This document shows, one piece after another, positions 1,009-15,270 of a DNA stretch of 44,213 bases. The stretch comes from a virus. How positions within the stretch are numbered: position 1 is the stretch's first letter; every line of letters starts with the position of its first letter. The stretch spans positions 1 through 44,213 of IMG/VR virus record IMGVR_UViG_3300045988_036631. One strand, written 5' to 3'. A model generated the notes under the pieces. The model was not told the origin of the DNA. It saw only the letters and a list, made by a program, of their open reading frames with translations, and ran no database searches. A program made the position numbers and the translations under genes.

Positions 1009-1102
1009 TGATATTCCATCCTTTCCGTGGTACAATAATCATGTCATTTTTTTGTTTGTCTCTCTGTGCCGTTCCGCGCTGCAACGCGGGGCGGTTCTTT
1101 TT

Positions 1103-1372: not shown

Positions 1373-1374
1373 GG

Positions 1375-1572
1375 TCAAACCTCCTTATCGAAGAATTGCG
1401 TCCAGTCAACATTCAATGCGTGAGCAATCTTTTTCGCTGTGTCAACCGTAGGGTCGCACAGCCCGCACTCGATTTGCCAGTAGGATGGCTGAGAAATGCC
1501 GGCCATTTCGGCAATGTCTTTTTGCCTCAGCCCTTTCTCGATGCGGATATCCTTTAGCCACTGTCTAATCAC
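1375..1572 (-). CDS. Cro-like XRE-family HTH regulator, 65 aa
   Basis: KGLRQKDIAEMAGISQPSYWQIECG HTH. GTG start with GGTGAT RBS. Divergent from the repressor gene. Confidence 0.85.
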   Translation of the reverse strand: MIRQWLKDIRIEKGLRQKDIAEMAGISQPSYWQIECGLCDPTVDTAKKIAHALNVDWTQFFDKEV

Positions 1573-1720
1573 TTTATCACCTGCCTTAGCTATCGGTTAT
1601 TTTCTTAGCTCATGCCTATTATATCATAGCTCAAGGCTATTGTAAATAGTTTTCAACTATTTTTTTATTCTTTACCAAGATAGTTTTTAGCTATATAATG
1701 ATGTAAAGGAGGGCTGAAAA
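1573..1720. promoter_or_regulatory. Divergent lysis/lysogeny switch: two sigma70-like promoters plus TAGCT-type operator repeats
   Basis: Minus-strand promoter: TTTACA (1641-1646 rc), 17 nt spacer, TATAAT (1618-1623 rc). The palindrome ATAGCTCAAGGCTAT (1626-1640) fills that spacer. Plus-strand promoter: TTTACC 1671-1676, 17 nt spacer, TATAAT 1694-1699. TTAGCT motifs at 1586, 1605 and 1687. Confidence 0.7.
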
Positions 1721-2083
1721 ATGAACAGAATCAAACAATGCAGAGAAAAGTCAAACCTTAGTCAAAAATACGTTGCCGTTGCTCTCGGCGTAGCTGCACC
1801 TTCTGTTAGCAACTGGGAAAGTGGGAAGACAAAACCCTCGATGGATAATTATGTTAATCTAGCGAAACTTTTCGGCGTTTCCGTCGAATATCTGCTAGGC
1901 GTGGCGGACAAGGACGAAAGTGAAGAAAAAACTCCCACCGCTACTAGCGATGGGAGTAATAAAGAATATCAAGATGTTTTTAATCTCCTGAATAATTGGA
2001 ATCGTCAACGTGCTCTTGACTTCGCAAAAGGTCTTTTAACAGCTCAAGAAGAAGCTCCTTCTGGTGAGAATTCAGTTTATTAA
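1721..2083 (+). CDS. CI-like XRE-family repressor, 120 aa, no S24 peptidase domain
   Basis: SNLSQKYVAVALGVAAPSVSNWESGKTKPSMDNYVNLAKLFGVSVEYLLG. AAAGGAGGG RBS. Divergent from the cro-like gene. Confidence 0.85.
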   Translation: MNRIKQCREKSNLSQKYVAVALGVAAPSVSNWESGKTKPSMDNYVNLAKLFGVSVEYLLGVADKDESEEKTPTATSDGSNKEYQDVFNLLNNWNRQRALDFAKGLLTAQEEAPSGENSVY

Positions 2084-2183
2084 CTACTTTCATAAAATCG
2101 CTCGTCAGCACTTCGTTTTCATTCTTCACAAAAATCACCTCATTATAATAGTCGAAGGAGTCTGTGCTCATGTCTCGCATCAA
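1980..2183 (-). CDS. Questionable 67-aa ORF, convergent with and overlapping the repressor 3' end
   Basis: Track ORF only. The overlap with 1721..2083 is 104 nt antisense. No clear RBS. Confidence 0.2.
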   Translation of the reverse strand: MMRDMSTDSFDYYNEVIFVKNENEVLTSDFMKVVNKLNSHQKELLLELLKDLLRSQEHVDDSNYSGD

Positions 2184-2339
2184 TTCGGTTTATTACTTAC
2201 CTTCTCCGGCGGCGGCATCTCAAACGGATTTCGCGGTTGAGATGCTACTACAATAATAATAATTATCATCGATATTCCCTCCATTGCTTACATTATATTC
2301 ATGTTGGAGGGTTAAAAGAATAGAAAGAGGGTTAAGAAA

Positions 2340-3149
2340 ATGAAAAGAATCGTTGCTCTGTTGGCTCTGATGTTTGCTCTTCTTCCCGTGCACGTCACGG
2401 CTGAGAACGAGATCGACCCGAAGGATTGCATACCGTTCCCGGCTGACTGTAAAAAAGCGGATGTCGCCATGGCTGCTCTGTATGCCGTTGATATCCCCAA
2501 CCCCCAGAATTACGAATGGAGTTCAAACACGGAAGATTTGCATTTCACGGAAGACGGAGTTTTTTCGCTCTTGGGTGAAAAAGGTACATTAACAGGCGTT
2601 CCGAAGGACGGAAGCGGAAAAACGATTAAAATTTCTGTGTCAGCCCCCATACCCTTTTTCAGCTCGAAGAATATCGTTGTCGATTCGCCGGAAGGCGAAG
2701 AATTGTTAGTCCGTACCGGCGGCGGATTTATTATGGTAGGCACAAGCGGCGACGACTGCTTCACCAGCGAAGAGATTGAGGGAAGAAAATATGGTTTTGC
2801 TGATGCGTACCGAATCATGCCCAAAAAAGAGGGCAAGGGCGCAATCATCTACACGATAAACATGAGCAAGAAATACAAGATCAACATCACGGTCAAAAAG
2901 TCCGCGCTCATGTCTGAAGAGGAACGGCAAGCCCTGATAGAAAAGGCCGGGGAGAACGCAAAAATTGTTATCGCGGAAAAGAACGTGAACGTCCGCGCTG
3001 ATGCGTCCGCTGATGCCGAGAAGGTCGGAAGCATCAAGGCCGGTGATGAAGTGATCGTCACCCAGCCGTACTATACGAAAAAGTGGCACCAGATTCTCTA
3101 TGACGGCGAGCTGTGCTATGTTTCGGCAAGCTATCTTAATGTCAAATAA
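2340..3149 (+). CDS. Secreted protein with C-terminal SH3b-like domain (moron)
   Basis: Signal peptide MKRIVALLALMFALLPVHVTA/ENE. C-terminus NVNVRADASADAEKVGSIKAGDEVIVTQ...WHQILYDGELCYVSASYL is SH3_3-like. Locally lower GC. Confidence 0.75.
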   Translation: MKRIVALLALMFALLPVHVTAENEIDPKDCIPFPADCKKADVAMAALYAVDIPNPQNYEWSSNTEDLHFTEDGVFSLLGEKGTLTGVPKDGSGKTIKISVSAPIPFFSSKNIVVDSPEGEELLVRTGGGFIMVGTSGDDCFTSEEIEGRKYGFADAYRIMPKKEGKGAIIYTINMSKKYKINITVKKSALMSEEERQALIEKAGENAKIVIAEKNVNVRADASADAEKVGSIKAGDEVIVTQPYYTKKWHQILYDGELCYVSASYLNVK

Positions 3150-3219
3150 GCAAAAATCCGCTACTAATCGCTTGAGATAAAAGCAAGCGTACAAAAAATC
3201 AAAATGGAGGCATTTAACC

Positions 3220-3609
3220 ATGAAAAAGAAGATTGCTATCGTATTGGCGGGCATGATGCTATCTGCCGGGGTTGCAATGGCCGACGTTGATCTAAAGAGC
3301 ATGTCCTTTGATGAGCTTGTCGATTTACAAAGTCAAATCCTCGAAGAAGCTGTAAGCCGTGAAGAATTTAAGTGCGTATCCGTCCCCGCTGGTGAATACA
3401 CCGTTGGTGTTGATATTCCGGCAGGAGACTATACTATTGCGAGCAACACAAAAAGTTCCATGGTAACGCTTTACGTGAACGGCTTTGAATCCGCATATTA
3501 TCTGACAAGCACAGACCCGGTAGTCGGCAAACTCTCCCTCGAAGATGGGGATATCGTCTCAACGTCCGGCACGTTGGATTTCTCCACCTATAAGGGGCTT
3601 GGTTTTTAA
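3220..3609 (+). CDS. Secreted small protein (moron), 129 aa
   Basis: Signal peptide MKKKIAIVLAGMMLSAGVAMA/DVD. Repeated GEYTVGVDIPAGDYTI motif. GGAGG RBS. Confidence 0.7.
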   Translation: MKKKIAIVLAGMMLSAGVAMADVDLKSMSFDELVDLQSQILEEAVSREEFKCVSVPAGEYTVGVDIPAGDYTIASNTKSSMVTLYVNGFESAYYLTSTDPVVGKLSLEDGDIVSTSGTLDFSTYKGLGF

Positions 3610-3674
3610 TCGCTTGGAACGGAAACAAGCGATGTTTTGTCGACGTCGGCAAAACATCGGGTCGCGCTGAGCGA

Positions 3675-3708
3675 CAAAAAAGGCGCGTCCTGATGGGCGC
3701 GTCTTTTT
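3675..3708. terminator. Bidirectional intrinsic terminator between convergent genes
   Basis: aaaaaa-GGCGCGTCC-tgat-GGGCGCGTC-ttttt hairpin (with G-U pairs), flanked by A and T runs. Confidence 0.6.
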
Positions 3709-3711
3709 GGT

Positions 3712-3966
3712 TTAAGCTCGACAGCAACAAAGTCCATAATCAGCGGAAGTCAACAGCTTGAAGCAGTTTTCGATGCGGAATAGATCAACTGCCCGTTCAA
3801 AAGCGATTTTCTTCTGCTCCTGCGTCAAGTCTTCGGGAAGACCTTTCAGACAATCGCGCAAATTTTCGACAATCGCAAGTACAATCGTGTTTTCCTCTAC
3901 TTCATTTTCCAGCCGGTCGAGCTTTGTTTCTGTCCTACATACAAATAGCTTGGATGTGTCGCTCAT
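3712..3966 (-). CDS. Hypothetical protein, 84 aa, divergent from int
   Basis: Internal ATG of track ORF 3712..4005 with GGTGATAGG RBS. MSDTSKLFVCRTETKLDRLENEVEE... No recognisable motif. Confidence 0.45.
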   Translation of the reverse strand: MSDTSKLFVCRTETKLDRLENEVEENTIVLAIVENLRDCLKGLPEDLTQEQKKIAFERAVDLFRIENCFKLLTSADYGLCCCRA

Positions 3967-4049
3967 CCTATCACCGCCTTTCTGCTTTTTAGTATATTCA
4001 GCCATTCGCAGAATATACTATCAAATAATTATCAAAAGGGGGATTTTTT

Positions 4050-5159
4050 ATGGCAAAAGCAAAAAAGCTACCGTCCGGGAACTGGCGAACACAGGTTTAC
4101 CTCGGCAAGGATGCCGCCGGAAAGCCAATCGTTGAATCCTTCACCGCCTCGACCGCCCGCGAATCTGAGCGTCTCGCCGCCGTCGCTGCTGCCGATCACA
4201 AACGGAAGAAGAAGCAAACGCTGACGCTTGGTCAGGCAATGGACGAGTTTATAGACACGTGCAGGGTACAAGGCTATTCGCCGTCCACGCTGAGGGGATA
4301 TGTCACCATCCGCAAAAACAGCTTCCTGTCGCTGGTCAATGTGAAGCTCGATCAAATCACGCCCCGCGATGTGCAAAAGGCACTTGACGACCGAGCGCGG
4401 GCGCACACGCCGAAGACGGTCAGAAATGACTATTTCTTACTCAAAACGATTTTGGAAAAAAACGTTCCCGATCTACAGCTTAATGGAATCGTCCTCGCAA
4501 AGCTCAAGCGGAAAAAGAAGCAGCTCTTTTCCGAAAAGTGGGCGGGCGACGTTCTCCGCTACGTCGCGGAACGCTGGGAGACGGATTTTTACCTCTACTG
4601 CTGCTTCATCATCAGCGCGGGCTTGCGCCCCTCTGAGGCGTATGCTCTGACGTGGGGGGATTTGTCCGCGTCTCCCATTGACGCGCTGGATTCGAGCGGC
4701 AGGACGTACAGGATCGGCACAATCAACATTGACAAGGCGATCGTTCGCGGCGAAAAGGGGTTCCAGCCCAAAGGGACGAAAAGCGACGCGGGAGAGCGCG
4801 TCCTGCGCGTTGACTGGTCTTTCTTTGAAAACCTTTACGACGCAAAGCCACGAGGAAAAGACGACGAACAGGTTTTCCAGATGAAGCCCAGCCGCGTTAT
4901 TTACAGATGGGATATCACGCGCAAAGACCTAGGACTGCCGGAAACCATGCGCTTTTACGACCTGCGCCACTTCTTCGCAACGTCCGTCGCATACTCCGGC
5001 GCATCCGAGGAAGAACTTGCCCGCGTCATGGGTCATTCCACATCCGCTTTCTCCCATCAGGTGTACGTCGAGCTTTTCCGTGAACGGCAGGATGAAATCA
5101 ACGCCAAAATGGCGGCGGGAACAGCCGCCTTGTACGGGTCTGTTTCGGCTAAAAAATAG
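4050..5159 (+). CDS. int: Tyrosine recombinase / phage integrase
   Basis: C-terminal catalytic pattern RFYDLRHFFATSVAYSG...LARVMGHSTSAFSHQVYVE (R..HxxR..H..Y). N-terminal SAM-like arm. Adjacent to attP. Confidence 0.95.
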   Translation: MAKAKKLPSGNWRTQVYLGKDAAGKPIVESFTASTARESERLAAVAAADHKRKKKQTLTLGQAMDEFIDTCRVQGYSPSTLRGYVTIRKNSFLSLVNVKLDQITPRDVQKALDDRARAHTPKTVRNDYFLLKTILEKNVPDLQLNGIVLAKLKRKKKQLFSEKWAGDVLRYVAERWETDFYLYCCFIISAGLRPSEAYALTWGDLSASPIDALDSSGRTYRIGTINIDKAIVRGEKGFQPKGTKSDAGERVLRVDWSFFENLYDAKPRGKDDEQVFQMKPSRVIYRWDITRKDLGLPETMRFYDLRHFFATSVAYSGASEEELARVMGHSTSAFSHQVYVELFRERQDEINAKMAAGTAALYGSVSAKK

Positions 5160-5171
5160 CCGTTTTCGGGC

Positions 5172-5415
5172 ATCATTTCACACGAAAATTCACACGTCAA
5201 GTCGAAAATCTTTGTATTCTTTGATTTTTTATGTTGGTTCGTCGGGTTCGACCCCCGCCACCGGCACCACGTGTGAAATCCAGAAGCCACAAAGGTTTCT
5301 GGATTTTTTCTTTTGTACTCTGGTTTTTCGCGTGTAAAAATATACTTGTTTCGTGTACGTCTTTCCCTGACGAGTGCAATCATTTTCAAAATCATTTCAC
5401 ACGATAATTCACACG
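5172..5415. other. attP region: tRNA 3'-end-like core flanked by arm-type repeats
   Basis: Core 5241-5269, TCGGG-TTCGACC-CCCGC-CACCGGC-A-CCA, reads as T-arm plus acceptor 3' strand plus CCA. Direct 25-mers atcatttcacacga(a/t)aattcacacg at 5172-5196 and 5391-5415 (1 mismatch). Inverted copy cgtgtgaaat at 5270-5279. Confidence 0.75.
5278..5310 (+). terminator. Intrinsic terminator downstream of int
   Basis: ATCCAGAA-gccacaaagg-TTCTGGAT followed by TTTTT. Confidence 0.7.
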
Positions 5416-5418
5416 CAA

Positions 5419-5451
5419 AGAGGCCGAGGGTTTGCCCCCGACCTCTTTTTT
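5419..5451. terminator. Hairpin terminator at the end of the minus-strand accessory operon
   Basis: AGAGGCCGAGGG-tttg-CCCCCGACCTCT (10 of 12 pairs), flanked by AAA and TTTTTT. Confidence 0.55.
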
Positions 5452-5770
5452 ATGCTTTGCGCGTTTTCAGCTTTCGGATGGCCGCCGCGTATGCTTTCGG
5501 CGCGACGATCTGCAAGCCCTGAATCGTGTCTTCCAGCGCATCGACAAGCTCAGCGGATGACAAGCCTGCACATGCGGCGCGGAACTCGCTTTCCGGCTCT
5601 GCCGCCATCGAGTACGCCGAAACGGGCGCTTCCCTCACATCCTGCACAGATTCGCTCGCCATGTGCGCCCGGAGACCGTACAGCACCGCCAGACGTTCAG
5701 CGTCTTTCACGCTCGTCCCTTCGCGCTTGATTTTGGTGATGGTTTCGTCGATCTCTTTCAGGTCGATCAA
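5450..5770 (-). CDS. Hypothetical protein, 106 aa
   Basis: Track ORF. Coupled downstream of 5787..6155. No motif recognised. Confidence 0.55.
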   Translation of the reverse strand: MIDLKEIDETITKIKREGTSVKDAERLAVLYGLRAHMASESVQDVREAPVSAYSMAAEPESEFRAACAGLSSAELVDALEDTIQGLQIVAPKAYAAAIRKLKTRKA

Positions 5771-5786
5771 TGCTGCTCACCGCCCG

Positions 5787-6155
5787 TCAGGCGTTGCGCA
5801 GCTCGTCCATTGCGCGGCGGATGATTTCGCGCTGTTCGCCGGTTGCGTCGCGCATGATCTCTTCCATTTTGCGCATCATGCTTTCGCGCCCGTCGTCGCG
5901 GCTGTAATGCCCGCGCACATAATGTTCGCCGCGCCGGTCGTTGCGTCCATAGCTTCCGCGCACGTCAGCACGCCACTCCGCGCTGTTACTGTAGCCCTCG
6001 TCCTCAAGGATTTCGATTTTGTCAATATTCTTGATGGTGTCGGTCAGCTTATGGACGGTTTCGAGGTCGCCGGGGTTCATGTCGCGCTTGGCGGCGATTT
6101 TGTCCAGCTCATCGCAAAGCATATCGCGCAAGTCGCGCATCGCTTTCATGCTCAT
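5787..6155 (-). CDS. Hypothetical charged protein, 122 aa
   Basis: ATG at 6155 with AGAAAGGAG RBS. R/D/E/Y-rich centre GSYGRNDRRGEHYVRGHYSRDDGRE. Confidence 0.55.
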   Translation of the reverse strand: MSMKAMRDLRDMLCDELDKIAAKRDMNPGDLETVHKLTDTIKNIDKIEILEDEGYSNSAEWRADVRGSYGRNDRRGEHYVRGHYSRDDGRESMMRKMEEIMRDATGEQREIIRRAMDELRNA

Positions 6156-6169
6156 ATTTTTCTCCTTTC

Positions 6170-6592
6170 TCACGCCTGCCGCGTGACGATCAGGTTTGCG
6201 TTGGCAACGTCAATCGCTTGCGCACTGGTGTTTTTCAGCGCGACGGTTACGCAGCATCCGCGCGGCACATCGACAAATGCGGAGACGGAGACGTTGAAAT
6301 AGTTTTCGACCGCCGCAGGGGTGACGATAGCGACGGCACTATTCAGCGGCTCGCCGTTTATGGTCAGCGCAACGGAGATCGCTCCAACCGTTCCACCGGT
6401 CGGAATGGCAATGTTCCCGGTGAAGTCCACAAAGTACCGTGCTCGGCACTGGTTTGTCAGGCCGCGAAGTGTTACGATTCCCGCGCCCTCTCGATGGACG
6501 ATGCACGGAGAGCCGCAAATCGGCGTTTCGGTCAGCGGTAGATTCTGGCCAGCCGCGACAAGTGCCGTGCTGGCGTTGGTATACTCAGCCAT
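6170..6592 (-). CDS. BclA-C-terminal / C1q-TNF-like jelly-roll domain protein, 140 aa
   Basis: Pattern QNLPL...G..IVH..GAGIVTL...RYFVDFTGNIAIPTGGTVGAISVALTINGEPL......VALKNTSAQAIDVANANLIVTRQA resembles the BclA C-terminal domain. GAAAGGAG RBS. Confidence 0.5.
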   Translation of the reverse strand: MAEYTNASTALVAAGQNLPLTETPICGSPCIVHREGAGIVTLRGLTNQCRARYFVDFTGNIAIPTGGTVGAISVALTINGEPLNSAVAIVTPAAVENYFNVSVSAFVDVPRGCCVTVALKNTSAQAIDVANANLIVTRQA

Positions 6593-6610
6593 AGATTATC
6601 TCCTTTCATA

Positions 6611-6640
6611 AGAAACGGCGGGACACATTCGCCCCGCCGT
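6611..6640 (-). terminator. Intrinsic terminator after the 273-aa gene
   Basis: Minus strand: ACGGCGGG-gcgaatgtgt-CCCGCCGT-TTCTT. Confidence 0.7.
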
Positions 6641-6706
6641 CGTTGCAGAATCAGCTCGGGGCTGAACAGCTCGGTCGCGCCGAACAGTTGCATCTCTTAT
6701 GCGATT

Positions 6707-7528
6707 TTAGCAGTTACAACCGGCGTTGGCAGCGCAGCCGTAACCGTATACGCCCGTGTAGGGGTTCGGCACCTGATACGCGGGGACAGCGACGGGCTGA
6801 CGCAGCGCGTTAATGATCTGCGCCGTCTGCGCTCCCATCTCCGTGGTCAACAGTGCGGACTGACGATCCTGCGACGCAGCGCGGCGAAGATCGGTGTTTT
6901 CCGCCTGCAACGTTGCAATCTTGTCCTGCGTGAGGAAGTCGAGAATCGCGCGGCTGTTGGCGTTCTGGTTGTCGATCACGTCGCGGGTGTTGTTGTTGAG
7001 CGTGTTCTGGATGGCGCAGAATCCCTGCTGCATCTGGTTTCGCGTGTCGCAAGCCTGAGTAGCGAGGTTGTAATTCACGCCCTGAATCGCTTCGCGCGTC
7101 TCGCAGCAACAGTTAGCCTGCTGCATCTGCATTGCGAAGAGCTGCTGCATGAGCGCCGCCTGCTGGTTCGCGCGGGAAAGCTCCGCCGCGCTGAAACCGC
7201 TATTGACGGCGTTGGTGATGGCGTAGGTGCTGTCACAAAGCCCGTTCTGGATAGCGCGAATGCCGCTGTCAATGCCGTTGATGGCAAAGCCTTCGTTGAT
7301 GTCCGCGCGGGTCGCGTAGCCCTGGAAGCCCGGAGAATTTGCGCCGTTGTTGCCGAAGCCGCCGCCCCAGCCCATGCCGCCCCAGCCGCAGAACATGAAG
7401 AGGAACAGAACGATGATACACCACGCGCCGTTCCCGTCTCCAAACATGCCGCCGTTGTTGCGATTTCCGCCCGTTACCGCCGCGATATCGGCAGGGGTCA
7501 TTTCAGAGGTAGTCAAAGACATTTTCAC
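6707..7528 (-). CDS. Membrane-anchored Gly-rich / Gln-Asn-rich Cys-containing protein with double-glycine-leader-like N-terminus, 273 aa
   Basis: N-terminus M(K)MSLTTSEMTPADIAAVTGG / NRNNGGMFGDGNGAWCIIVLFLFMFCGWGGMGWGGGFGNNG. This is followed by a Q/N-rich region with a CCC motif and the tail GYGCAANAGCNC. Alternative ATG at 7522. Confidence 0.65.
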   Translation of the reverse strand: MKMSLTTSEMTPADIAAVTGGNRNNGGMFGDGNGAWCIIVLFLFMFCGWGGMGWGGGFGNNGANSPGFQGYATRADINEGFAINGIDSGIRAIQNGLCDSTYAITNAVNSGFSAAELSRANQQAALMQQLFAMQMQQANCCCETREAIQGVNYNLATQACDTRNQMQQGFCAIQNTLNNNTRDVIDNQNANSRAILDFLTQDKIATLQAENTDLRRAASQDRQSALLTTEMGAQTAQIINALRQPVAVPAYQVPNPYTGVYGYGCAANAGCNC

Positions 7529-7573
7529 ACGTCCTTTCGTTTTTATCGCTAACCGTGCGCACGGATTTAGCCG

Positions 7574-7804
7574 TTAGAGACCTTCAAAGAGGCTTTGGAA
7601 CTGGCGGGCGATGCCGTAGAGCTGATTAAACTGCTGCTGCGTCATCTTGCCGCTGTTGAGTAGGCGCTGAACCTCTTGCTGCGGATCGCCGTTAAATCCG
7701 GCCTTGAACCGCTTGAACTCCTGCGCCATCTGCTGAAACTGTCCCATCTGTCCGGGAAGATTCCCAGACATGCCTTGCATCGCATTAAACAGCGGGTTGC
7801 TCAT
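7574..7804 (-). CDS. Small Gln-rich protein, 76 aa
   Basis: ATG 9 nt after AAGGAGG. MSNPLFNAMQGMSGNLPGQMGQFQQMAQEFKRF... Confidence 0.5.
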   Translation of the reverse strand: MSNPLFNAMQGMSGNLPGQMGQFQQMAQEFKRFKAGFNGDPQQEVQRLLNSGKMTQQQFNQLYGIARQFQSLFEGL

Positions 7805-8231
7805 CGGCTGCATCCTCCTTTTTTCTGTTCGGCTTTTTTGCCATCGCATCGACACGCGCCACGAGCGCGTTAAAGTCGTCGCGGGTCACATAATCGGCTG
7901 ATTGTACGGGAGGCTCGGCCTGTCTCGGTGCTGTCCTCTCGGTGTAGTCAAAGATTCGCATCGACGGCATACCGCTTGCGTCCGCAGATTTGAGGTAAAA
8001 CGTCAAAGATTCGCTGTCCATCAGCAGAACACCGCTTCCGGGGCTGACCGGGTAGCTTTTCGCCGCTGCTTCGCCCTGAACCCAGATGATTCCACCGCTA
8101 TTTTGAGCTGGCACTTGCTGCGCCGGCTGCTGCGGCATGTACGGCTGTGATCTGAGCTGCGCAAGTTGATCTTGCATTGGCGGGTAATATCCGCCGTATG
8201 GCTGCTGCCAGCCTTGCATCGGATAGGCCAT
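7785..8231 (-). CDS. Hypothetical protein with Pro/Gln-rich N-terminus, 148 aa
   Basis: MAYPMQGWQQPYGGYYPPMQ...PQQPAQQ followed by a compact domain IIWVQGEAAAKSYPVSPGSGVLLMDSESLTFYLKSADASGMPSMRIFDY. Confidence 0.55.
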   Translation of the reverse strand: MAYPMQGWQQPYGGYYPPMQDQLAQLRSQPYMPQQPAQQVPAQNSGGIIWVQGEAAAKSYPVSPGSGVLLMDSESLTFYLKSADASGMPSMRIFDYTERTAPRQAEPPVQSADYVTRDDFNALVARVDAMAKKPNRKKEDAADEQPAV

Positions 8232-8234
8232 AGA

Positions 8235-8630
8235 TCATCCCTCCCAGTAGTAAAGGGGCGTTTCGCCGCCGCTGTCCCATGTGTCATACCAATCACCGTC
8301 TACGACCGCGAGAACATGTCCGTTTGTCGCCAAAACGTAAACGCCACGCGGGAAGTCTCGGCAAAAATCCGAAACCGTGTAGCAGTCCGGGCACGTCTCC
8401 GGGATACTGTGACGCTTGAAGCCTTTGCGTCGAAGATACGCGCCCCAGACGTGATTTGCGTTTGGCATGTCTCCAACGCAGAAACCGTCAAGGCAAAGCG
8501 CGACGAATACGCTTTCCCATGTTTGCCCTGTGGCCTTGCTTACGGCTCTAATCGCGCAGTCGCCGACGCGAGAATGAAAAGGGTTTGGATTAAATGGAAC
8601 AAACACGCTCTCACCTGCTTCTGCCCTCAT
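8235..8630 (-). CDS. Stand-alone papain-fold (C39- / NlpC-P60-like) putative cysteine peptidase, 131 aa
   Basis: Candidate Cys in NPNPFHSRVGDCAIRAVSKATGQTW and candidate His in YVLATNGHVLAVVDGDWYDTWDSG. Size and motif order fit a Cys-His peptidase domain. Confidence 0.45.
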   Translation of the reverse strand: MRAEAGESVFVPFNPNPFHSRVGDCAIRAVSKATGQTWESVFVALCLDGFCVGDMPNANHVWGAYLRRKGFKRHSIPETCPDCYTVSDFCRDFPRGVYVLATNGHVLAVVDGDWYDTWDSGGETPLYYWEG

Positions 8631-8638
8631 TTTTGCAC

Positions 8639-8671
8639 AAAAAAAGGACGTGCACCTATCAGATGCACGTC
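8639..8671 (-). terminator. Strong intrinsic terminator after the 118-aa gene
   Basis: Minus strand: GACGTGCA-tctgatagg-TGCACGTC-CTTTTTTT. Confidence 0.8.
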
Positions 8672-8691
8672 ATGTTTATATCAGGTTTTTG

Positions 8692-9048
8692 TCAATCCTC
8701 GACCTTGAGAATCGCCAGTACTGTCGGATAGCTCAAAATGATTTCGCCCTCATCCTCACCATATCCGCTCATCTTATTGTCACCCAAGAGCAGCACATAT
8801 CGGCCAGGATACTCATTATTGGTATTAGCCATCGCGCTGTATATCGTCGCACATACACCGTCGAGTTCTTCCTCCGTCTCTTCGCCATCCACCCAAACTC
8901 GGCTGTTGTGGATGACCTTGTCGCCAACTTTCAGGCCGAAGGTTTCCTCTTGAACGCGGATACCGATGTAGGCATAATCTTCTTCAAACGCCTCCATATC
9001 AATTTCCGCGTTTTCAATCGCCTTGCGAACCGCCTTGTTGCTTGCCAT
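8692..9048 (-). CDS. Strongly acidic hypothetical protein, 118 aa (monocistronic moron)
   Basis: Roughly 25 D/E versus about 10 K/R, counted by eye. AGGAGGAAAAAG RBS. Has its own consensus promoter and terminator. Confidence 0.65.
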   Translation of the reverse strand: MASNKAVRKAIENAEIDMEAFEEDYAYIGIRVQEETFGLKVGDKVIHNSRVWVDGEETEEELDGVCATIYSAMANTNNEYPGRYVLLLGDNKMSGYGEDEGEIILSYPTVLAILKVED

Positions 9049-9091
9049 AACTTTTTCCTCCTATCGGTTTCTTCCTTGTTCTTATGGCTAT

Positions 9092-9120
9092 ATTATACAT
9101 CATTTTAATTTACTTGTCAA
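9092..9120 (-). promoter_or_regulatory. Consensus sigma70 promoter (copy A), with A/T-rich upstream element
   Basis: Minus strand: TTGACA (9115-9120 rc), 17 nt spacer, TATAAT (9092-9097 rc). The -35 lies inside the palindrome ACTTGACAAGT. TTTGCAAA palindrome just upstream. Confidence 0.8.
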
Positions 9121-9155
9121 GTGTTTTGCAAATTATTTTTATTTATTTTTAAGTC

Positions 9156-9182
9156 AAAAAAACTCCCTGCGCAAGGCAGGGA
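9156..9182 (-). terminator. Intrinsic terminator after the 245-aa gene
   Basis: Minus strand: TCCCTGC-cttgc-GCAGGGA-GTTTTTTT. Confidence 0.75.
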
Positions 9183-9189
9183 ATAAACG

Positions 9190-9927
9190 CTATTGATCTG
9201 GATCATCCGGTTTGCGCCTATGCGCTGGCGTGATAGGCAGAGACAGCAGCCCCCAATCCTTATAGTGATACACAGATCCCTTACACGATGGATTGCCTCG
9301 CATGCATGCCGCGATCTTTTGAAATCCCCGCGCGATACGGTTCGCAGCATCGTCTCGCTCCTCTTCCGGAGTTTGCGGCTCAAAGAGCCGATAATTGTTG
9401 CGCGCCCAGTCGAGCAGATTGGTGCATGGCACTTGATTCCCACTCGGATCGACCAGCACCCATATTTTGCTTTCGCGATTTTGCGGCCCACGCTGTCCCT
9501 CCGGGATCGCAAGCGCCGCTTGCACGGCACGCGGTCGCAGCTCGTCCATCTGTGCCTTAATGTCAGGGTCTTCCGCGCGTCGCCTTTTCGCGTCCTCTCC
9601 CCACTTGCGCGGCTTGTCATGCGACGACTTCGCCGCCCGAAGACGGCGGCAGGCATCCGAGCAGGTCACGCGGTTGTCCGAGCGGTATGAGTCAAACGGC
9701 TTTCCGCAGATCACACACGTTTTTGTGATCTTCCCAACCGCCTTGCATCCGCACGATGTAGTCTTGCCCGCAATCAGATTACTCGCATAGTACGACTTTA
9801 CGCTGCCGCATCTCAGGCATTCCGCGTCGCATTGTGTCTTAGACGACGCCTCCGGCAGTCGCCAGATCCTCAAAACCTTGAGATCGCCAAACACATTGCC
9901 GACCTGCATGTTGAGCTTGCGCGGCAT
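9190..9927 (-). CDS. Zinc-ribbon protein, possibly a degenerate homing-endonuclease-like DNA binder, 245 aa
   Basis: N-terminus VGNVFGDLKVLRI...CDAECLRCGSVKSYYASNLIAGKTTSCGC plus CVICGKPF...CSDAC. C-terminus SKIWVLVDPSGNQVPCTNLLDWARNN. GGAGG RBS before ATG 9927. Confidence 0.6.
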   Translation of the reverse strand: MPRKLNMQVGNVFGDLKVLRIWRLPEASSKTQCDAECLRCGSVKSYYASNLIAGKTTSCGCKAVGKITKTCVICGKPFDSYRSDNRVTCSDACRRLRAAKSSHDKPRKWGEDAKRRRAEDPDIKAQMDELRPRAVQAALAIPEGQRGPQNRESKIWVLVDPSGNQVPCTNLLDWARNNYRLFEPQTPEEERDDAANRIARGFQKIAACMRGNPSCKGSVYHYKDWGLLSLPITPAHRRKPDDPDQ

Positions 9928-9929
9928 AG

Positions 9930-10412
9930 TCAGCGCCTCCAAAACTCGCCGCCAACGAAGACGCGAGGCAATCCCCTATACATTACCACCGTGTCTTCGC
10001 CGCGCGCGTCAACCCAGCGCGCGGCGCCGATCTCATCGACGGTCATAGGCTGCTCACCCTGCCAGTCCGCGAGGGTAAACTGCATACCCTCAGACTGGAT
10101 CACAGCAATGATCCCGACGTCTGGGTGCTCGACGAGGTAAAAAATGCCGTAATCGTCGATCACCGTCTCGGCCACGATGGGCAGCGCCTCCGTGCGCCCG
10201 GTCTGCCAGTCATAGACTGCCAACCGCTGCGCGTCGCCCCGCAGATATGCCGCCGAAACGCCCAGCGCGTCCGCCAGCGCAGGCAGAATTTTGTTTCCGG
10301 GGTTGCTCTGCCCCCCCTCGTAATTGTTGAGCTGTTGAGCGGATATACCCATCTTATCCGCCAGCTCTTTCTGTTTCAATCCGCGCAAGACGCGCAGCTG
10401 TTTAATGTTCAT
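9930..10412 (-). CDS. XRE-type HTH fused to an unknown C-terminal domain, 160 aa
   Basis: MNIKQLRVLRGLKQKELADKMGISAQQLNNYEGGQSNP HTH, then about 95 aa with no recognised motif. GGGAGGGAGGAG RBS. Confidence 0.8.
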   Translation of the reverse strand: MNIKQLRVLRGLKQKELADKMGISAQQLNNYEGGQSNPGNKILPALADALGVSAAYLRGDAQRLAVYDWQTGRTEALPIVAETVIDDYGIFYLVEHPDVGIIAVIQSEGMQFTLADWQGEQPMTVDEIGAARWVDARGEDTVVMYRGLPRVFVGGEFWRR

Positions 10413-10431
10413 GGTTTTTCTCCTCCCTCCC

Positions 10432-10782
10432 TTAAAATATTACTTGCGGCTTGTAATCGCCGCTCTCACGGTCGTAGTGCATCAATGTCAGATGCACGCC
10501 GTTTTCCGCGCACGCGGCAATGACTGCCGCCATGGCTGCGGTCAATCCGGTGACGTAGACCACCAGCTCACGACGGCCACAGAAGCACGACGTGTCTGTG
10601 TAATCGTTGCCGTTGATCGGCTGGGTGTACGCCGACTCAACGCCCACGCGGTCAAGGACAAACTTAACCGCGACCGCCCGGAGGCCGTCGAAATCCAACG
10701 GGTTGACGGTCTCCGGGTAGATGTATTCCGTCACCGGCAGCGGATGACGGGAAGCGCAAAGACCGCAAATTACCTTTTCCAT
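10432..10782 (-). CDS. Hypothetical protein, 116 aa
   Basis: GGAAAGGAG RBS. C-terminal strand-helix-strand-looking ELVVYVTGLTAAMAAVIAACAENGVHLTLMHYDRESGDY. No family recognised. Confidence 0.6.
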   Translation of the reverse strand: MEKVICGLCASRHPLPVTEYIYPETVNPLDFDGLRAVAVKFVLDRVGVESAYTQPINGNDYTDTSCFCGRRELVVYVTGLTAAMAAVIAACAENGVHLTLMHYDRESGDYKPQVIF

Positions 10783-10847
10783 TTTTTTCTCCTTTCCGCC
10801 GCGCTGGTGCGGCAGTCGAAAAATTGCGAACAGTTTCCGCCTGGCAC

Positions 10848-11216
10848 TTACCAGACGTAGGCGCGCGCCGCGCTCAGCCGTCTATAACCGCGAGGCGGGC
10901 AGTTATCTTCCACTCTGCAAATGCGCAGAGTGGAACCTCTATCGCTGAGCTCGTCCGTCTCCTGCATGAGGATATAACGCCGCCCCGCGGAAAACTTCGG
11001 GCGATCCACAAAGAGCCAATCGCCATAGCTCTCCGCCAATGCGGCATAATTTGCGCCGACCAGCCGACGCGCAGACTTGCCGAGCAGCGGCTTTCGCGCC
11101 GGGATAAAGCTCCATTCCGGTACATCGCCGGATTCCTCCGCGATATACCGATCAGAATAGGCCAGCGCTTTGTTAAGGCGCTTCATTTGCTTCTTGATGG
11201 TTCTCCATTTTTTCAT
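10848..11216 (-). CDS. Hypothetical basic protein, 122 aa
   Basis: First gene after promoter copy B. AAAAGGAGGAAAAAATT-ATG RBS. Confidence 0.6.
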   Translation of the reverse strand: MKKWRTIKKQMKRLNKALAYSDRYIAEESGDVPEWSFIPARKPLLGKSARRLVGANYAALAESYGDWLFVDRPKFSAGRRYILMQETDELSDRGSTLRICRVEDNCPPRGYRRLSAARAYVW

Positions 11217-11298
11217 AATTTTTTCCTCCTTTTTTACGCGGCGACGAGTGCGCCGGTCATGTTGTCGATGTTTTCCTTGTTCCTTATGACTGTATTGT

Positions 11299-11327
11299 AT
11301 TATACATCATTTTAATTTACTCGTCAA
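11299..11327 (-). promoter_or_regulatory. Near-consensus sigma70 promoter (copy B), with A/T-rich upstream element
   Basis: Minus strand: TTGACG (11322-11327 rc), 17 nt spacer, TATAAT (11299-11304 rc). The surrounding roughly 110 bp is near-identical to 9070-9182. Confidence 0.8.
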
Positions 11328-11363
11328 GTGCTTTACAAATTATTTTTATTTATTTTTTGCATT

Positions 11364-11390
11364 AAAAAAGCCCCTGCCATCAGGCAGGGG
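11364..11390 (-). terminator. Intrinsic terminator closing the late/lysis operon
   Basis: Minus strand: CCCCTGCC-tgat-GGCAGGGG-CTTTTTT. Overlaps the stop of 11380..11607. Confidence 0.8.
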
Positions 11391-11607
11391 TGTTATCATC
11401 TGTATATATAGATGCAGACATCCGTCTTTTAATCTCGCGAATGCTGCGGCTGACAGTTGCGGGCGACATGCCCAGTGTCATGCTGATCTGCACAATGCTG
11501 TAACCGCGCCAGAGCAGGTCAAAGACCTGTCCCAGCCGGACGTGCTCGTCAAAGCCGCAGCGGCGGGCGATTTCCTCTTTCGTGCGCCTGTCAAAATCAA
11601 GGCGCAC
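11380..11607 (-). CDS. Small sigma70-region-4 / LuxR-like HTH protein, 75 aa
   Basis: LLWRGYSIVQISMTLGMSPATVSRSIREIKRRM. GTG start with GGGAGG RBS. Confidence 0.6.
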   Translation of the reverse strand: MRLDFDRRTKEEIARRCGFDEHVRLGQVFDLLWRGYSIVQISMTLGMSPATVSRSIREIKRRMSASIYTDDNTPA

Positions 11608-11623
11608 AGAAAACCGCCTCCCT

Positions 11624-11953
11624 TTACACGCTGGCTTCCTCGACCACTACGGGCGCGGTGCTCTCCAACTTTGCAATCTCAGCGTTCACCAGCTCGACAA
11701 GCTCATCTGTATCCAACTTATATCCGTGCGCGTCAAGCCGCTCCTTTACCCACGCCAGCTTTTCTTCTCCGCGCCCGGAGCCGGTGTACAGCTTTTCGGC
11801 GGCGAATACGAGGATAGACACGAGGTCGCGGATTTCGCGCCGCTGGTCAAGCGTCGTCTTGGCCTTGATCCACGGGACGACATACCGCGTAATCAGCGCG
11901 GCCACGAGGACGATCAGCGCCTGGAAGATGGGGGTCAGGTCGATATTAGACAT
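11624..11953 (-). CDS. Holin, LL-H-like family, 109 aa
   Basis: MSNIDLTPIFQALIVLVAALITRYVVPWIKAKT TM segment followed by AAEKLYTGSGRGEEKLAWVKERL. Located in the lysis cassette. Confidence 0.75.
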   Translation of the reverse strand: MSNIDLTPIFQALIVLVAALITRYVVPWIKAKTTLDQRREIRDLVSILVFAAEKLYTGSGRGEEKLAWVKERLDAHGYKLDTDELVELVNAEIAKLESTAPVVVEEASV

Positions 11954-11992
11954 AGATAGCCTCACTTTCTGCCCGGTTTTTGCCGGGCGATG

Positions 11993-12433
11993 TCATGTAA
12001 AAATGTGGTTCTCCAAACACTTGTGATAAGTGTTTTTGATGATATTGGTCGCCTCTATTGTTTTGTGGTTTTCAAATTGTGGGTGTGATTCGCAGTAAGC
12101 ATTATAGGCATTGATATCGTCAAACACCTGCTCAAAATGCTGTCGTGCGTGGCTCAAATCCGTCCGATAGTACAGCTCATCCGCAAACCGCTGTATTCGT
12201 GCTCGTGCAATTTTGGCAAACTCAAGGTCGTTTTTCGCCTCAATCCGTCCCATGCGCTCTTCCAACGAGCCGACAAGTGCCTTGCGCAAGCCCTTAAAAA
12301 CCCACGAGAGCGGCTGAACCTTGATCGGGGAAATCTCGATCAGGTTGAGCGTGATATACACCAGCACGAGCGTCAGTGTGCTGTGCGTTGTGACAGCCGC
12401 TTGCAAGCCGTCCAGCAGCTTTTGTAGTGTCAT
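11993..12433 (-). CDS. Membrane-anchored lysis-cassette protein of unknown role, 146 aa
   Basis: N-terminal TM LTLVLVYITLNLI followed by a soluble domain. Sits between endolysin and holin. Confidence 0.6.
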   Translation of the reverse strand: MTLQKLLDGLQAAVTTHSTLTLVLVYITLNLIEISPIKVQPLSWVFKGLRKALVGSLEERMGRIEAKNDLEFAKIARARIQRFADELYYRTDLSHARQHFEQVFDDINAYNAYCESHPQFENHKTIEATNIIKNTYHKCLENHIFT

Positions 12434-12436
12434 CGG

Positions 12437-13210
12437 TCAATCCTCCGCAATCGTCCATTTTCCCGCCAGCGTGATATACACGCCGTCGTTCCTGCGCAGG
12501 GTCGTCGTGGCCAGTGCTTCGCCGCCCGTCTCGTCCTGATCCCCGCTTTCCGGCGGCGCATCCTCGACAAGATATTTGCTGGACATGTACCCGGTATCGC
12601 CGTTTTCCAGCTTGCCGAACACCCAGCCCGTGCCGCCCGCCTCGCGGATGACGTTCACCCGCGCGCCGTCTGCGGCTTTTGCGATGACCTTTGACCGAGT
12701 GCTTGCGCCCTCACGGATGTTGAGATATCCGCTGGTCACGCTCACCGTTGCATTGCCATACATGGTCTCACCTCCTTCCGCGTTATCTGAATAACTGATC
12801 GCCTTTAGCGGGGCGGCGAACGCCCAATTTTGCGACGCGGGCGACGCGACAAAGCCCGTCTTGGTGCTCTGCGCGTTGAGCACACGCCCATCCTGTCCCA
12901 TCAGGCCAATGTGATAGCAGTCGCCGGGCTGCTGGTCAAACCAGCGGTTGCCGCTGTCGTCCTCGCGCCACTCGCGCAGCTTGAAGACCGCATAGCCCGG
13001 CTTTGCCTCCGATACGGGCACATACTCGCCAACGCGCAGATGCGCAATAGAGTTGCTTCCGTGCTCGATTGTCGCGCCAAGCTGCTTATACGCCCAGACA
13101 AACGCGCCCGAACAGTCTACACAGCCCTCGCGCGCCGTGCCCAGCTCATACGCCCAGTGCTCGTCCAGCATGCGTTGAAAGAGATTGATCAGTGCGCTCG
13201 CCTTAATCAT
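12437..13210 (-). CDS. Endolysin: NlpC/P60 peptidase plus SH3b, 257 aa
   Basis: GCVDCSGAFVWAYKQLG (Cys) and GDCYHIGLMG (His). SH3b-like GYLNIREGASTRSKVIAKAADGARVNVI...GYMSSKYL. GGGAGGTG RBS before ATG 13210. Confidence 0.9.
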   Translation of the reverse strand: MIKASALINLFQRMLDEHWAYELGTAREGCVDCSGAFVWAYKQLGATIEHGSNSIAHLRVGEYVPVSEAKPGYAVFKLREWREDDSGNRWFDQQPGDCYHIGLMGQDGRVLNAQSTKTGFVASPASQNWAFAAPLKAISYSDNAEGGETMYGNATVSVTSGYLNIREGASTRSKVIAKAADGARVNVIREAGGTGWVFGKLENGDTGYMSSKYLVEDAPPESGDQDETGGEALATTTLRRNDGVYITLAGKWTIAED

Positions 13211-13301
13211 CCCACGCACCTCCCGCGCGGATGAAGCGGCCAACCAGACAGCCGGCCGCGAAGATGATCGCGCCGCCGACGATGATACCAAGAATAATCA
13301 T
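13203..13301 (-). CDS. 32-aa single-TM peptide overlapping the endolysin start (not in the ORF track)
   Basis: My translation: MIILGIIVGGAIIFAAGCLVGRFIRAGGAWDD. GGAGGCAAAACC-ATG RBS. Its stop overlaps the endolysin ATG. Confidence 0.45.
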   Translation of the reverse strand: MIILGIIVGGAIIFAAGCLVGRFIRAGGAWDD

Positions 13302-13563: not shown

Positions 13564-15270
13564 TTAGGTTGTAGTCATAGACGCAATCGCGTCTTCAAGA
13601 TTTTTGATCACGATGTTTACGTCTCTTTGATAGTCCAGTTTCAACCCTGCGCCATCCGTGGCTTGCACCACGGTGTTGGGCGCGTAGGTAGTCAGCGCTT
13701 TGTAGGCGGTAAGTTCGGCAGGGGTGAGCGGGGTTTCAACGGGGGCGGCAAGGATTGCGTTTTGTTCGGCAAGCGTTTTTGTGTTGTCAAAAGAGGTTTT
13801 ATCAACCCTCTGCACCTTCACCCCCCTTTCCAAGTCCACCTCGTCGCACACCCATTGCTGCCCATTTTCATCCGTGTAATTGCCGCCGGAAGTGACAGGG
13901 ATGCCGGGCAAGCCGTTTGGGGTGGGAAGGGTGAGAAGTTGTTCGTGGTAGGGTTCGTAGGTGGTTGCGGTTGTGCCGAGTTCAAGCTGCACTTTTACGC
14001 CAGTGAGATTGTATGTTTGTCCTTCAGTTACAATAAAAACTATTCTGGTTGCCATATCAGACATTTTATCGGCAGCACCTAAAGAAAGAATAGCTCCCCA
14101 TGTTTCTGATACAATTTTCACTTTTGGAGATGTGATGCTAGATGATAAAATCACCACACCGGATGCAATAAATGGTGGGATGTCTAACTTGGCATAGCCA
14201 GAACTAGTTGCCGTCCCTGAAATTGATATTAACCCATCTTTTGCAGTAACCGTTACACCTCTAGCGGTCGCTGACCCGTCGGGAATATTCAGCAGATTCC
14301 TCCCCGTCACCTTCACCGCCACGCTTCCGCCATCTCCCGCACTCACAATCGGAACAGGCGCATCGGGAGTCGGCGTGCCGTCCTGCGTACTCTTGCCGTA
14401 GACAGTCAGCCCGCACAGCGGCGCGGAAAAAGCGTCAGAGACAGATACAGGATTGCCCGTTTCGGTGCCGATCAGGATATTCTGGCGCGCTTTGTCGGCC
14501 TTCTCAGCAACAGCCTTCTCAATTTCCGCCAGCCGCTTTCCCGTTGCGGCTGCGTCCGCCGCCTCGCCCTCCTGGGTCAGCGTCGCGTCGATGACGGCAT
14601 CCTTGCCCGGTTCGCCTTTTGCGCCCGTGTCGCCCTTGTCTCCTTTATCTCCCTTTGCGCCCGTTTCGCCCTGCGGGCCGGTGTCTCCCTTCTCGCCCCT
14701 GTCGCCCTTGTCCCCTTTTTCGCCCTTGGGTCCTTGCGGGCCAATCGGGCCTGTTTCGCCCCTGTCTCCCTGCGGACCTTGCGGCCCTACAAAGTCGCCA
14801 TTATCCAACCGCCGCTGTACTTCGTCTGCGACTTCCTGCGCAGCGTTTCCCGCTCGTTCAACGTCGGCCAGCATGCCAGTCGCTTTGTCAATCCATGTTG
14901 TAACCGGATCAGGTGCCGGGGCAGTTGCGTCGCCAAGAGACTCGCTGATGCGCGTACAGGCAATCGCAGTCTTGATGACTGCGCCATCCGCATCTTGGAT
15001 TGTGATTTGGGCTTGCCCGCTTCCGGCTTTATCGCCGATGTCCGCGCGCGTGATCTCCCACGTCAGGATACTGCCCTCTTGTTTCACCGTCGCCGGATAC
15101 TCCACCCGGCCAGGCGGCTTGACCGTGATCGACGCGATAGCATCCGGATACTGGCTCAATATGCTTTTCAGGTCGAGCTGTACCCGCGTCGCGCGATTTT
15201 CGCCGACACGCCCAAGCAGCAGCGCTTGATCGCCAAAACGATCAAGCGTCAGAATGATATCACGCATCAC
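13564..15270 (-). CDS. Tail fibre / receptor-binding protein: BppU_N-like N-terminus plus collagen-like G-X-Y region
   Basis: N-terminus [25 protein letters not shown]...[22 protein letters not shown]. About 20 G-X-Y triplets ([29 protein letters not shown]...), roughly 14605-14787. Confidence 0.85.

Follow-up and report, generated by a model that had tools for sequence, protein, structure and literature searches.

A horizontally mobile late-gene cassette of uncharacterised function in gut phages

Several described systems share features with a block of late genes that recurs in gut phages. Double-glycine precursors of the ComA/LagD type combine a leader ending in GG with a Gly-rich hydrophobic stretch and are paired with C39 peptidases, enzymes of papain-like fold with a Cys-then-His order that are fused to, or lie near, an ABC transporter. 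Exosporium assembly in the Bacillus cereus group involves BclA, ExsY and CotY; the basal layer is made of Cys-rich ExsY/CotY, the N-terminus of BclA is proteolytically processed, and BclA_C-like domains, which are trimeric fibre heads, are usually borne on collagen-like stalks. Among phage proteins, i-spanins (Rz) serve lysis, although monoderm bacteria need no spanin for it, tailed-phage ejection proteins are commonly helical with transmembrane segments, and morons occupy hot spots of the late region. Here we describe a gene cassette in IMG/VR virus record IMGVR_UViG_3300045988_036631 (positions 1 to 44,213; this whole stretch of 44,213 nucleotides is called the window) that resembles each of these in part and that we rate as falling outside known kinds of system. 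None of the core cassette proteins reaches the curated cut-off for a characterised family, a solved structure or a defence system, and we use 'new' to mean uncharacterised, not shown to act in an unprecedented way. Our literature searches found no description of the cassette.

A preliminary description of the window had singled out four open reading frames (ORFs), each of which exists and is encoded on the minus strand, namely A (8630..8235), B (8231..7785), C (7804..7574) and D (7528..6707). Together they make up the 5' half of a late-gene cassette, conserved among gut phages and horizontally mobile, which runs on past position 6707 with E (6592..6170), F (6173..5787) and G (5770..5450). Its general form is regulator-(A)-B-C-D-E-F-(G), five to seven genes of uncharacterised function, where the regulator is a small protein resembling a helix-turn-helix (HTH) or sigma-70 region 4 domain. 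Around relatives of D we fetched 80 loci from IMG/VR and 80 from species-representative genomes (loci are given L numbers below), clustered their ORFs, built hidden Markov models (HMMs) of the families and took a gene census of those loci flanked by 3 kb or more on both sides (n = 119 for all loci, n = 37 for the genome set); because the loci are phylogenetically non-independent, the counts are descriptive. B was found in 116 of the 119 loci, C in 115, E in 117 and F in 111, with the regulator in 95 and A in 64. The corresponding numbers among the 37 genome loci were 35 (B), 34 (C), 36 (E), 31 (F), 18 (regulator) and 25 (A). Co-occurrence of the core B-C-D-E-F is thus 93–98%, and the order in the surveyed loci is always (A)-B-C-D-E-F. 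Co-occurrence of the four genes first noticed therefore holds for B, C and D, which are nearly always together, but not for A, which is optional (33/68 IMG/VR loci, 25/37 genome loci) and missing from 32–51% of loci.

Two slots of the cassette are each filled by two protein types that are not detectably homologous by profile-profile comparison: C5 and C7 for C (hhalign probability 12%), and, for E, the E3 type seen in the window and a Cys-rich E22 type. Treating either pair as one family was dropped on these grounds. A mostly accompanies E3 and is nearly absent with E22. Searches of A to G against Pfam, NCBIfam and PADLOC gave no significant matches to cassette proteins, the PADLOC defence profiles matching none of the seven significantly; PHROGs yielded only families without known function, and PDB-sequence profile searches with A, B, D and E returned noise only. 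By these four databases (Pfam, PHROGs, NCBIfam and PADLOC) the cluster is no known lysis or structural module, as had been supposed, and no known defence module. A satellite or defence-island reading was rejected, there being no integrase, replication or known defence gene within the cassette.

Judged from the sequences, the cassette hops between phage backbones with different capsid-gene families; D is 50–58% identical across such phages. It is co-oriented with the late genes in every backbone. One slot lies between MuF/minor capsid protein 2 and the scaffold and capsid genes, as in Dulem virus 35 and in IMG/VR class 1, which has the order portal-MuF-cassette-scaffold-capsid; Phage_min_cap2 stands upstream of the cassette in 10 of 46 genome loci. 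A second is found between capsid/connector and tail genes, beside a diversity-generating retroelement (L002 class), and a third directly behind the receptor-binding protein of Dulem virus 36, where holin and hydrolase are 17 kb from the cassette and the 50 kb examined contain no integrase. The fourth slot, behind holin and endolysin, is occupied in the window, in Dulem 33, in bajarodcaudo 5 and in the cultured Vescimonas fastidiosa MM35. In the window the LL-H-type holin lies at 11624..11965 (minus strand; Pfam Phage_holin_6_1, 6.4e-10), and an endolysin at 12437..13291 (minus strand; NLPC_P60 3.4e-5, SH3_3 8e-11) marks the lysis cassette upstream. The order in MM35 is holin-amidase-regulator-A-B-C-D-E-F-G-host genes; a 950-bp gap after the amidase in the PLSDB gene table (L169, NZ_AP023416, 12192-13094) holds an ORF like HTH/sigma-70 region 4 and a clear A homologue (MYKYFNPNPCGKNVSDCTVRA...GHVVCVQDG). 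The hosts are in their great majority monoderm Clostridia, and D is found in prophages of dominant members of this class in the human gut (Oscillospiraceae, Lachnospiraceae, Ruminococcus).

Like phage morons, the cassette is a compact co-oriented gene set whose position varies among unrelated backbones and which sits at classical insertion hot spots, after MuF and after lysis genes. Unlike morons, it comprises five to seven genes in strict order with their own small regulator and no sigma-70 promoter, and it is conserved across thousands of lineages, D even reaching crAss-like phages. There D occurs alone, in cr53_1, cr115_1 and cr52_1, where it is annotated 'spike protein/glycoprotein' (HMM 2.6e-58); in cr53_1 it stands behind a holin and a LysB/FtsL-like gene. 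The crAss-like proteins gp64, gp65 and gp67 were tried as counterparts of B, E and F and rejected, since they are alike in composition but find no support in hhalign. We also rejected the cassette as a lysis-cassette appendage in general, given that recognisable endolysin or holin genes lie within 3–3.5 kb upstream in only about 10–25% of species-level loci. Where it stands away from lysis genes, an XhlA-type 'hemolysin' (phrog_937, 7e-15) or another gene for a transmembrane segment plus coiled coil accompanies it, and because such genes travel with the cassette we count them as an envelope or lysis link.

Some features of the neighbouring genes deserve mention in their own right. The diversity-generating retroelement beside the cassette occurs in two unrelated phage groups, at about 10.6–16.4 kb in L002-L005 and at 944-4789 in L088 (cr53_1), and consists of a reverse transcriptase with a DUF6273/C-type-lectin-like target or a tail protein like the 'major tropism determinant'. 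Lineages that carry the cassette within their head module have a Hol44-type holin gene (Phage_holin_5_2, 2e-23) amid the head-tail connector genes and far from endolysins; it was seen at L065:5368-5646, at the same position in many IMG/VR loci and at 10609-10866 in Dulem virus 35 (L170). The region 4904-9945 of cr53_1 has in-frame stops under the standard code, one such position falling in the D homologue, as would fit a reassigned stop codon.

The centrepiece of the cassette is D (minus strand; phrog_16490, 9.8e-68), a single-pass membrane protein of 273 amino acids (aa) from a GTG start or 271 aa from an ATG that gives MSLTTSE..., as in relatives. Composition counts confirm the early impression of a P/Q-rich B, a Q-rich C and a Q/N-rich, Cys-bearing D: residues 73-260 of D contain 22.9% Q+N, where ten large ORFs of this phage have 3.3% Q and 4.3% N, and its 11 Cys include a CCC and those of the tail GCAANAGCNC. 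A single segment of D, residues 35-53, is hydrophobic (Kyte-Doolittle 1.92); by hydropathy, A, B, C, E, F and G have no hydrophobic or signal-like segment. Alignments of the D family reveal a conserved S.ADIAAVTG segment, a hydrophobic Gly/Trp-flanked GAWWII.LFLF.F.GWG segment, an invariant CCC in the Q/N-rich helical region, a P.PAY.VPNP motif and a G/C/N/Y-rich tail. The transmembrane segment is a Gly-zipper, and the polar residues R182, D183, N189, D197, S219, Q220 and Q223 of the helical part are invariant.

AlphaFold2 (AF2), run with 64 sequences, gave a poor model of D, with a predicted local distance difference test score (pLDDT) of 52.7. It places helices at residues 35-46 (the transmembrane segment), 84-110, 117-138 and 144-242 (pLDDT 65-82 for 144-242), in agreement with the alignment; Foldseek with this model found four meaningless matches. 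Given that transmembrane segment and helices are both predicted and conserved, D is a bitopic membrane protein, some 250 aa long and with one helix of roughly 100 residues, not the precursor of a small peptide, and its long helical domain is probably oligomeric. The family is large, with at least 8000 clusters at 90% identity and at least 2959 at 50% identity (E<=1e-3), and its best 150 representatives are all 100–400 aa long, with no fusions and no short peptides among these.

These properties bear directly on the preliminary description, which likened D to a bacteriocin precursor with a double-glycine leader and A to a C39-type leader peptidase. The N-terminus of D in the window does fit the leader pattern, being hydrophobic at -4, -7 and -12 and acidic at -8, with GG at -2/-1, and it runs on into a Gly-rich hydrophobic stretch. 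The regular expression [LIVMF]x3[DE][LIVMF]x2[LIVMFA]xG[GAS] matched only 2 of 3515 other proteins of related loci (0.06%), as against 42 of 245 D relatives, so that the match is real as a pattern. The proposed cleavage site, however, is unconserved. In 248 unique D relatives the aligned pair is GN in 70, GG in 58, GS in 55, GA in 11 and something else or a gap in 54; the second Gly is thus G in only 23%, and G, A or S in only 124. Some subfamilies lack the motif wholly, and in one of them it is replaced by an unrelated TMMMPVAPT N-terminus. Loci with A mostly have D N-termini of GN type, PV or no motif at all, and the presence of A does not co-vary with GG.

A (8235..8630, minus strand; phrog_3754, 2.5e-28) was annotated as 131 aa with the motifs GDCAIRA and NGHVLAVVDG. 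Its true start is probably the GTG at 8606, giving 123 aa, because a ribosome-binding site, AGGTGAG, lies 5 nt upstream and relatives begin MFVPFNPNP. C25, H105 and D116 are invariant in 40 relatives, and a confident AF2 model (pLDDT 92.7) puts the Cys at a helix N-terminus, the His at the start of a strand and the Asp on the adjacent strand, the papain-like arrangement also known from clan CA enzymes (Josephin, staphopain, Tae4) and transglutaminases. A Foldseek search of the PDB gave no significant match: YopQ was best at E 0.09, followed by Josephin-2 (E 0.14, TM-score 0.45) and, more weakly (E>0.09), by Tae4, staphopain, ComA-PEP and TssM, so that papain-like cysteine hydrolases make up most of the named matches below YopQ. 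ComA-PEP (5xe9_B) ranked sixth (E 0.83, TM-score 0.35), with other papain-like folds higher. A Josephin-domain protein was matched in BFVD at E 0.011, and among predicted viral structures 21 matches had E<1e-3, all uncharacterised except one bearing a thioesterase domain name.

The papain part of the first assignment of A is supported by an invariant triad and a fitting model topology, and the C39 part is not supported: the search of Pfam, Peptidase_C39 and C39_2 included, returned no family at E<=0.1, there was no NCBIfam match, and for lack of a Pfam match A is not a demonstrable C39 peptidase. Unlike characterised papain-fold enzymes it is minimal and matches no family model, and unlike C39 peptidases it is neither fused to nor near an ABC transporter. 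The LSGGQ signature is absent from all six frames of the window, as the preliminary description had implied in finding no transporter, and no transporters occur among the neighbours listed for related loci. Going by residue conservation, A appears to belong to a phage family that is widespread, uncharacterised and marked by a papain-like catalytic triad; its membership in the papain-like fold is plausible from the model, and the sequence does not distinguish protease, amidase and transglutaminase chemistry. A-like folds are found in Pseudomonas ITTPL, Enterococcus vipetofem, PhiJL001 gp45, Cellulophaga phiST and others, and A-like structure records are absent from the 24 phage records matching D. 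With A missing from a third to half of the loci and its fold present in phages not matched by D, a functional link between A and D is unsupported.

E (minus strand; phrog_20016, 3e-63) is a 140-aa beta-rich protein with an invariant CC. In the window it has no direct match to BclA_C (PF18573) and none to any Pfam family at E<=1. Two E3 relatives, L124 and L168, match BclA_C at 7.9e-8 (32.7 bits) and 1.6e-5, under the 38-bit cut-off, and the E3 core HMM finds both at 1e-14 (hhalign 96–98%). As a homologue search with E brought up only close unnamed relatives, its fold is assigned through the Pfam matches of these divergent members: E is probably a distant BclA_C relative with a C1q/TNF-like beta-sandwich, by a link that is indirect and below threshold. 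On that basis the cassette, like the exosporium nap, brings together a C1q-like domain, Cys-rich proteins, a long partner shaped like a rod and, optionally, a cysteine hydrolase. It differs in that E is a stand-alone protein without a collagen-like stalk, in that the rod, D, is an alpha-helical membrane protein, and in that the genes are phage late genes, D occurring also in crAss-like phages. In the window a long collagen-like G-X-Y repeat is found in a tail-fibre gene (13564-15270, minus strand), 7 kb from the separate gene for E.

The remaining members are soluble, low-complexity or charged partners (B, C, F) without export signals, and a lineage-restricted last gene (G). B (minus strand; phrog_21718, 1.1e-32; 148 aa) has a disordered P/Q/Y-rich N-terminal head, with 43.5% P+Q in residues 1-46, a conserved beta-rich middle (WVQGE..AK.Y.V.P...V.L.DSE...Y.KS.D.SG.P) and a C-terminal helix. 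C (minus strand; phrog_22984, 1e-18) is a Q-rich helical protein of 76 aa with 19.7% Q. F (minus strand; phrog_28802, 6.8e-11, and 1.2e-63 for a relative) is helical and highly charged, with 21% K+R, 23% D+E and a conserved GEHYVRGHYSR motif in its R/G/Y-rich middle. G (minus strand; 106 aa) was found by tblastn in L008 and L081, and Vescimonas has a 107-aa gene at its position.

The regulator, S6, lies at 11380..11607 (minus strand; family HMM 68.9 bits) and is a 75-aa protein with Pfam matches to GerE (2.1e-5) and Sigma70_r4_2 (1.7e-3); one relative matches Sigma70_r4 at 2e-6. Its family is present in 67 of 68 IMG/VR loci and 18 of 37 genome loci and usually precedes the cassette. In the window two inserted units separate the two (8692..11340, minus strand), each with its own sigma-70 promoter (12/12 at 9120..9092, 11/12 at 11327..11299) and terminator (9184..9162, 8671..8647). 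One unit (8692-9120) encodes a 118-aa acidic protein behind a perfect TTGACA-17-TATAAT promoter. The other (9162-11340) has four genes: two unknowns, an XRE-type HTH gene (9930-10412) and a gene for a Cys-rich 250-aa protein (9190-9942) with weak HNH-endonuclease PHROG matches. Both look like genuine morons and, being absent from relatives such as Vescimonas, lie outside the cassette. A RAGATH-17 match at 11293-11389 (minus strand; E 0.12), which reaches 35 bits where the gathering score is 102 and overlaps the terminator that follows the regulator gene, is probably due to chance; an Rfam scan of positions 5000-12500 gave sub-threshold matches only.

Immediately upstream of A the 5' junction of the cassette (8631..8671, minus strand) is made up of a hairpin resembling a terminator, its stem 11 bp long, together with a T7 run and a GTGCAAAAAT box. 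The same arrangement of hairpin, T-run and (A/G)TGCAAAAAT stands before the first cassette gene in 32 of 79 IMG/VR loci and 11 of 73 genome loci, compared with 0–1 after shuffling. In the relatives (L067, L049, L140, L123, L099 and others) the hairpin is accompanied by a run of six to eight T and by a box reading (A/G)TGCAAAAAT(ATAAT); the loop GAACT is common to several junctions from IMG/VR and from genomes, and their stems vary in a compensatory way. The junction matches no Rfam family and could be a conditional terminator or a regulator-dependent promoter. In IMG/VR class-1 phages (L042, L049, L051, L061 and others), tandem AAGTCATAGAAT-like repeats in variable number are found ahead of B, in the part of its 5' leader that separates the junction box from the start codon. 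We found no sigma-70-type promoter ahead of the cassette in the window. This, together with the cassette in an apparently non-temperate phage and D in crAss-like phages, points to late lytic rather than lysogenic expression.

Taken together, we read the cassette as a late-expressed, membrane-anchored complex acting at the host envelope, tentatively and with a probability of about 40%. It would be switched on late in the lytic cycle and not in the lysogen, possibly in dependence on the small regulator, with expression reading through or past the hairpin junction. D would be inserted in the host cytoplasmic membrane and oligomerised through its coiled coil and, with E, B, C and F, would form a filament- or spike-like complex anchored there, D and E perhaps associating through their CCC, CC and Cys-tail motifs. 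The complex would act on the host envelope at the end of infection, the candidate roles being the control or completion of release, or the exclusion of other phages. Where A is present, it may modify one of the cassette's own components, whether by proteolysis or by transglutaminase-like cross-linking of Q-rich partners.

A fuller version of this reading, which we think rather unlikely to hold as a whole, sees in the cassette a new phage-encoded membrane-anchored 'spike'. D would be its Gly-zipper-anchored coiled-coil stalk, long enough for a Gram-positive wall, capped by E as a C1q/BclA-like knob tied on through the same Cys motifs. B, C and F would be Q-rich helper proteins, cross-linked in many lineages by A acting like a transglutaminase. 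Made late, the spike would alter the infected cell's surface or the debris that is released, and might in this way exclude competing phages, for instance, or act as a decoy for them.

Several points weigh against an envelope complex. The model of D is poor, as given above, and D has no positive-inside bias that would fix its membrane topology. B, C, E and F have no signal peptides, so an extracellular complex would need a lysis or holin route, and for B, C, D and F there is no experimental or homology-based functional anchor. Only D is demonstrably common to the crAss-like phages, and a tightly co-assembled complex would not usually have two types without detectable homology in each of its C and E slots. 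Finally, only about 20% of species-level loci adjoin recognisable lysis genes; about 22% adjoin a head gene, which fits a role in the virion equally well.

The latter role is the strongest of the alternatives, and we regard it as possible, if on balance unlikely. The cassette proteins would be accessory proteins of the virion, packaged or attached whatever the capsid type: head-internal ejection or pilot proteins with a membrane-inserting D, decoration or fibre proteins with E as a C1q-like knob, or both. Head genes are indeed the commonest recognisable neighbours, as shown by Phage_min_cap2 upstream and by the class 1 order, and in Dulem 36 the cassette directly follows the receptor-binding protein. 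The relation of E to the fibre heads of the BclA_C kind, the helical, membrane-spanning character that D would share with ejection proteins, and the high charge and R/G/Y-rich middle of F are all in keeping with it. Set against these, the identity of D across different capsid-gene families, and its sharing with a crAss-like podovirus, argue that its interaction partner belongs to the host rather than the virion. The cassette also has its own small regulator and hairpin junction, in several phages it closes the late region, lying past the lysis genes, and among the phage records matching D no cultured phage with virion proteomics carries it.

Lysogenic conversion, in which a prophage-expressed moron would remodel the cell or spore surface with, for instance, an exosporium-like nap or an exclusion filament, seems improbable. 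The interval between lysis genes and integrase/att that the cassette occupies in the window, Dulem 33 and Vescimonas is a classical conversion slot, the hosts are Clostridia, and the BclA_C relation of E, the Cys-rich proteins and the optional protease recall exosporium assembly. Yet the cassette lacks the sigma-70 promoter that the neighbouring genuine morons have in consensus form, most loci embed it in late structural operons, and it occurs in Dulem virus 36, with its integrase-free 50 kb, as D does in crAss-like cr53_1. Some host genera, moreover, are to our knowledge non-sporulating (Subdoligranulum, Ruminococcus bicirculans).

We are similarly doubtful of a reading of D as a membrane protein that resembles a spanin or completes lysis, partnered by the other genes. 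With an N-terminal transmembrane segment, a long helix and Cys, D by hydropathy and the low-confidence model may recall the architecture of an i-spanin such as Rz, and it is sometimes found beside holin or endolysin: behind holin and LysB/FtsL-like protein in cr53_1, and with the whole cassette behind holin and endolysin in the window and at least four other phages. XhlA-type genes adjoin the cassette in class 2. Against this, the monoderm hosts would need no spanin, no o-spanin partner is seen, as B, C, E and F have no hydrophobic or signal-like N-terminus to mark a lipoprotein, and most loci are not beside lysis genes, which are 17 kb away in Dulem 36. D is also larger than i-spanins, has no sequence similarity to them, is Q/N-rich and has a unique Cys-rich tail.

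A bacteriocin-like toxin, secreted or membrane-active and released from D by cleavage after GG by a C39-like A, is very improbable and by the conservation data already largely refuted: the rare leader pattern of D in the window, the Gly-rich hydrophobic segment behind it, the papain order of the invariant Cys, His and Asp of A and the weak ComA-PEP match speak for it, but the leader is not conserved, A is optional, unmatched to C39 models and without a transporter, and the 'mature' part would be a protein of about 250 aa with a conserved membrane anchor and a 100-residue helix in a family free of short peptides among its best 150 representatives, so that this reading fails and the cassette itself remains real.

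A mobile, strictly ordered and self-regulated late cassette of five genes that is found across unrelated backbones must confer a general advantage. Its function, once known, would be that of one of the commonest blocks of gut-virome 'dark matter', and its study could reveal a new late-stage mechanism at the phage-envelope interface. The question is directly testable, given that cultured lysogens exist in Vescimonas fastidiosa MM35 and Anaerotruncus colihominis DSM 17241.

The window as a whole is in essence the genome of a single temperate phage of siphovirus type. Read on the minus strand, its genes begin with RecT, DnaB and an antirepressor, followed by terminase and portal, the major capsid gene and the tail genes, which include the collagen-repeat fibre. 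Behind these come the endolysin, a 146-aa transmembrane protein, the LL-H holin, the 75-aa regulator, the two small inserted units, A to G and a convergent tyrosine integrase (4050..5159, plus strand; Pfam Phage_integrase, 1.1e-8). A bidirectional terminator-like hairpin with a 14-pair stem and a T-run (5275..5307) lies in the interval between cassette and integrase. No tRNAs were found in the window. Beyond the integrase, positions 1001-4000 have a GC content of 0.45–0.47, compared with about 0.55 elsewhere in the window, and hold an XRE-type HTH gene (1721-2083) and a gene for an SH3_3-domain protein (2340-3149); this region is probably the lysogeny or accessory arm of the phage.

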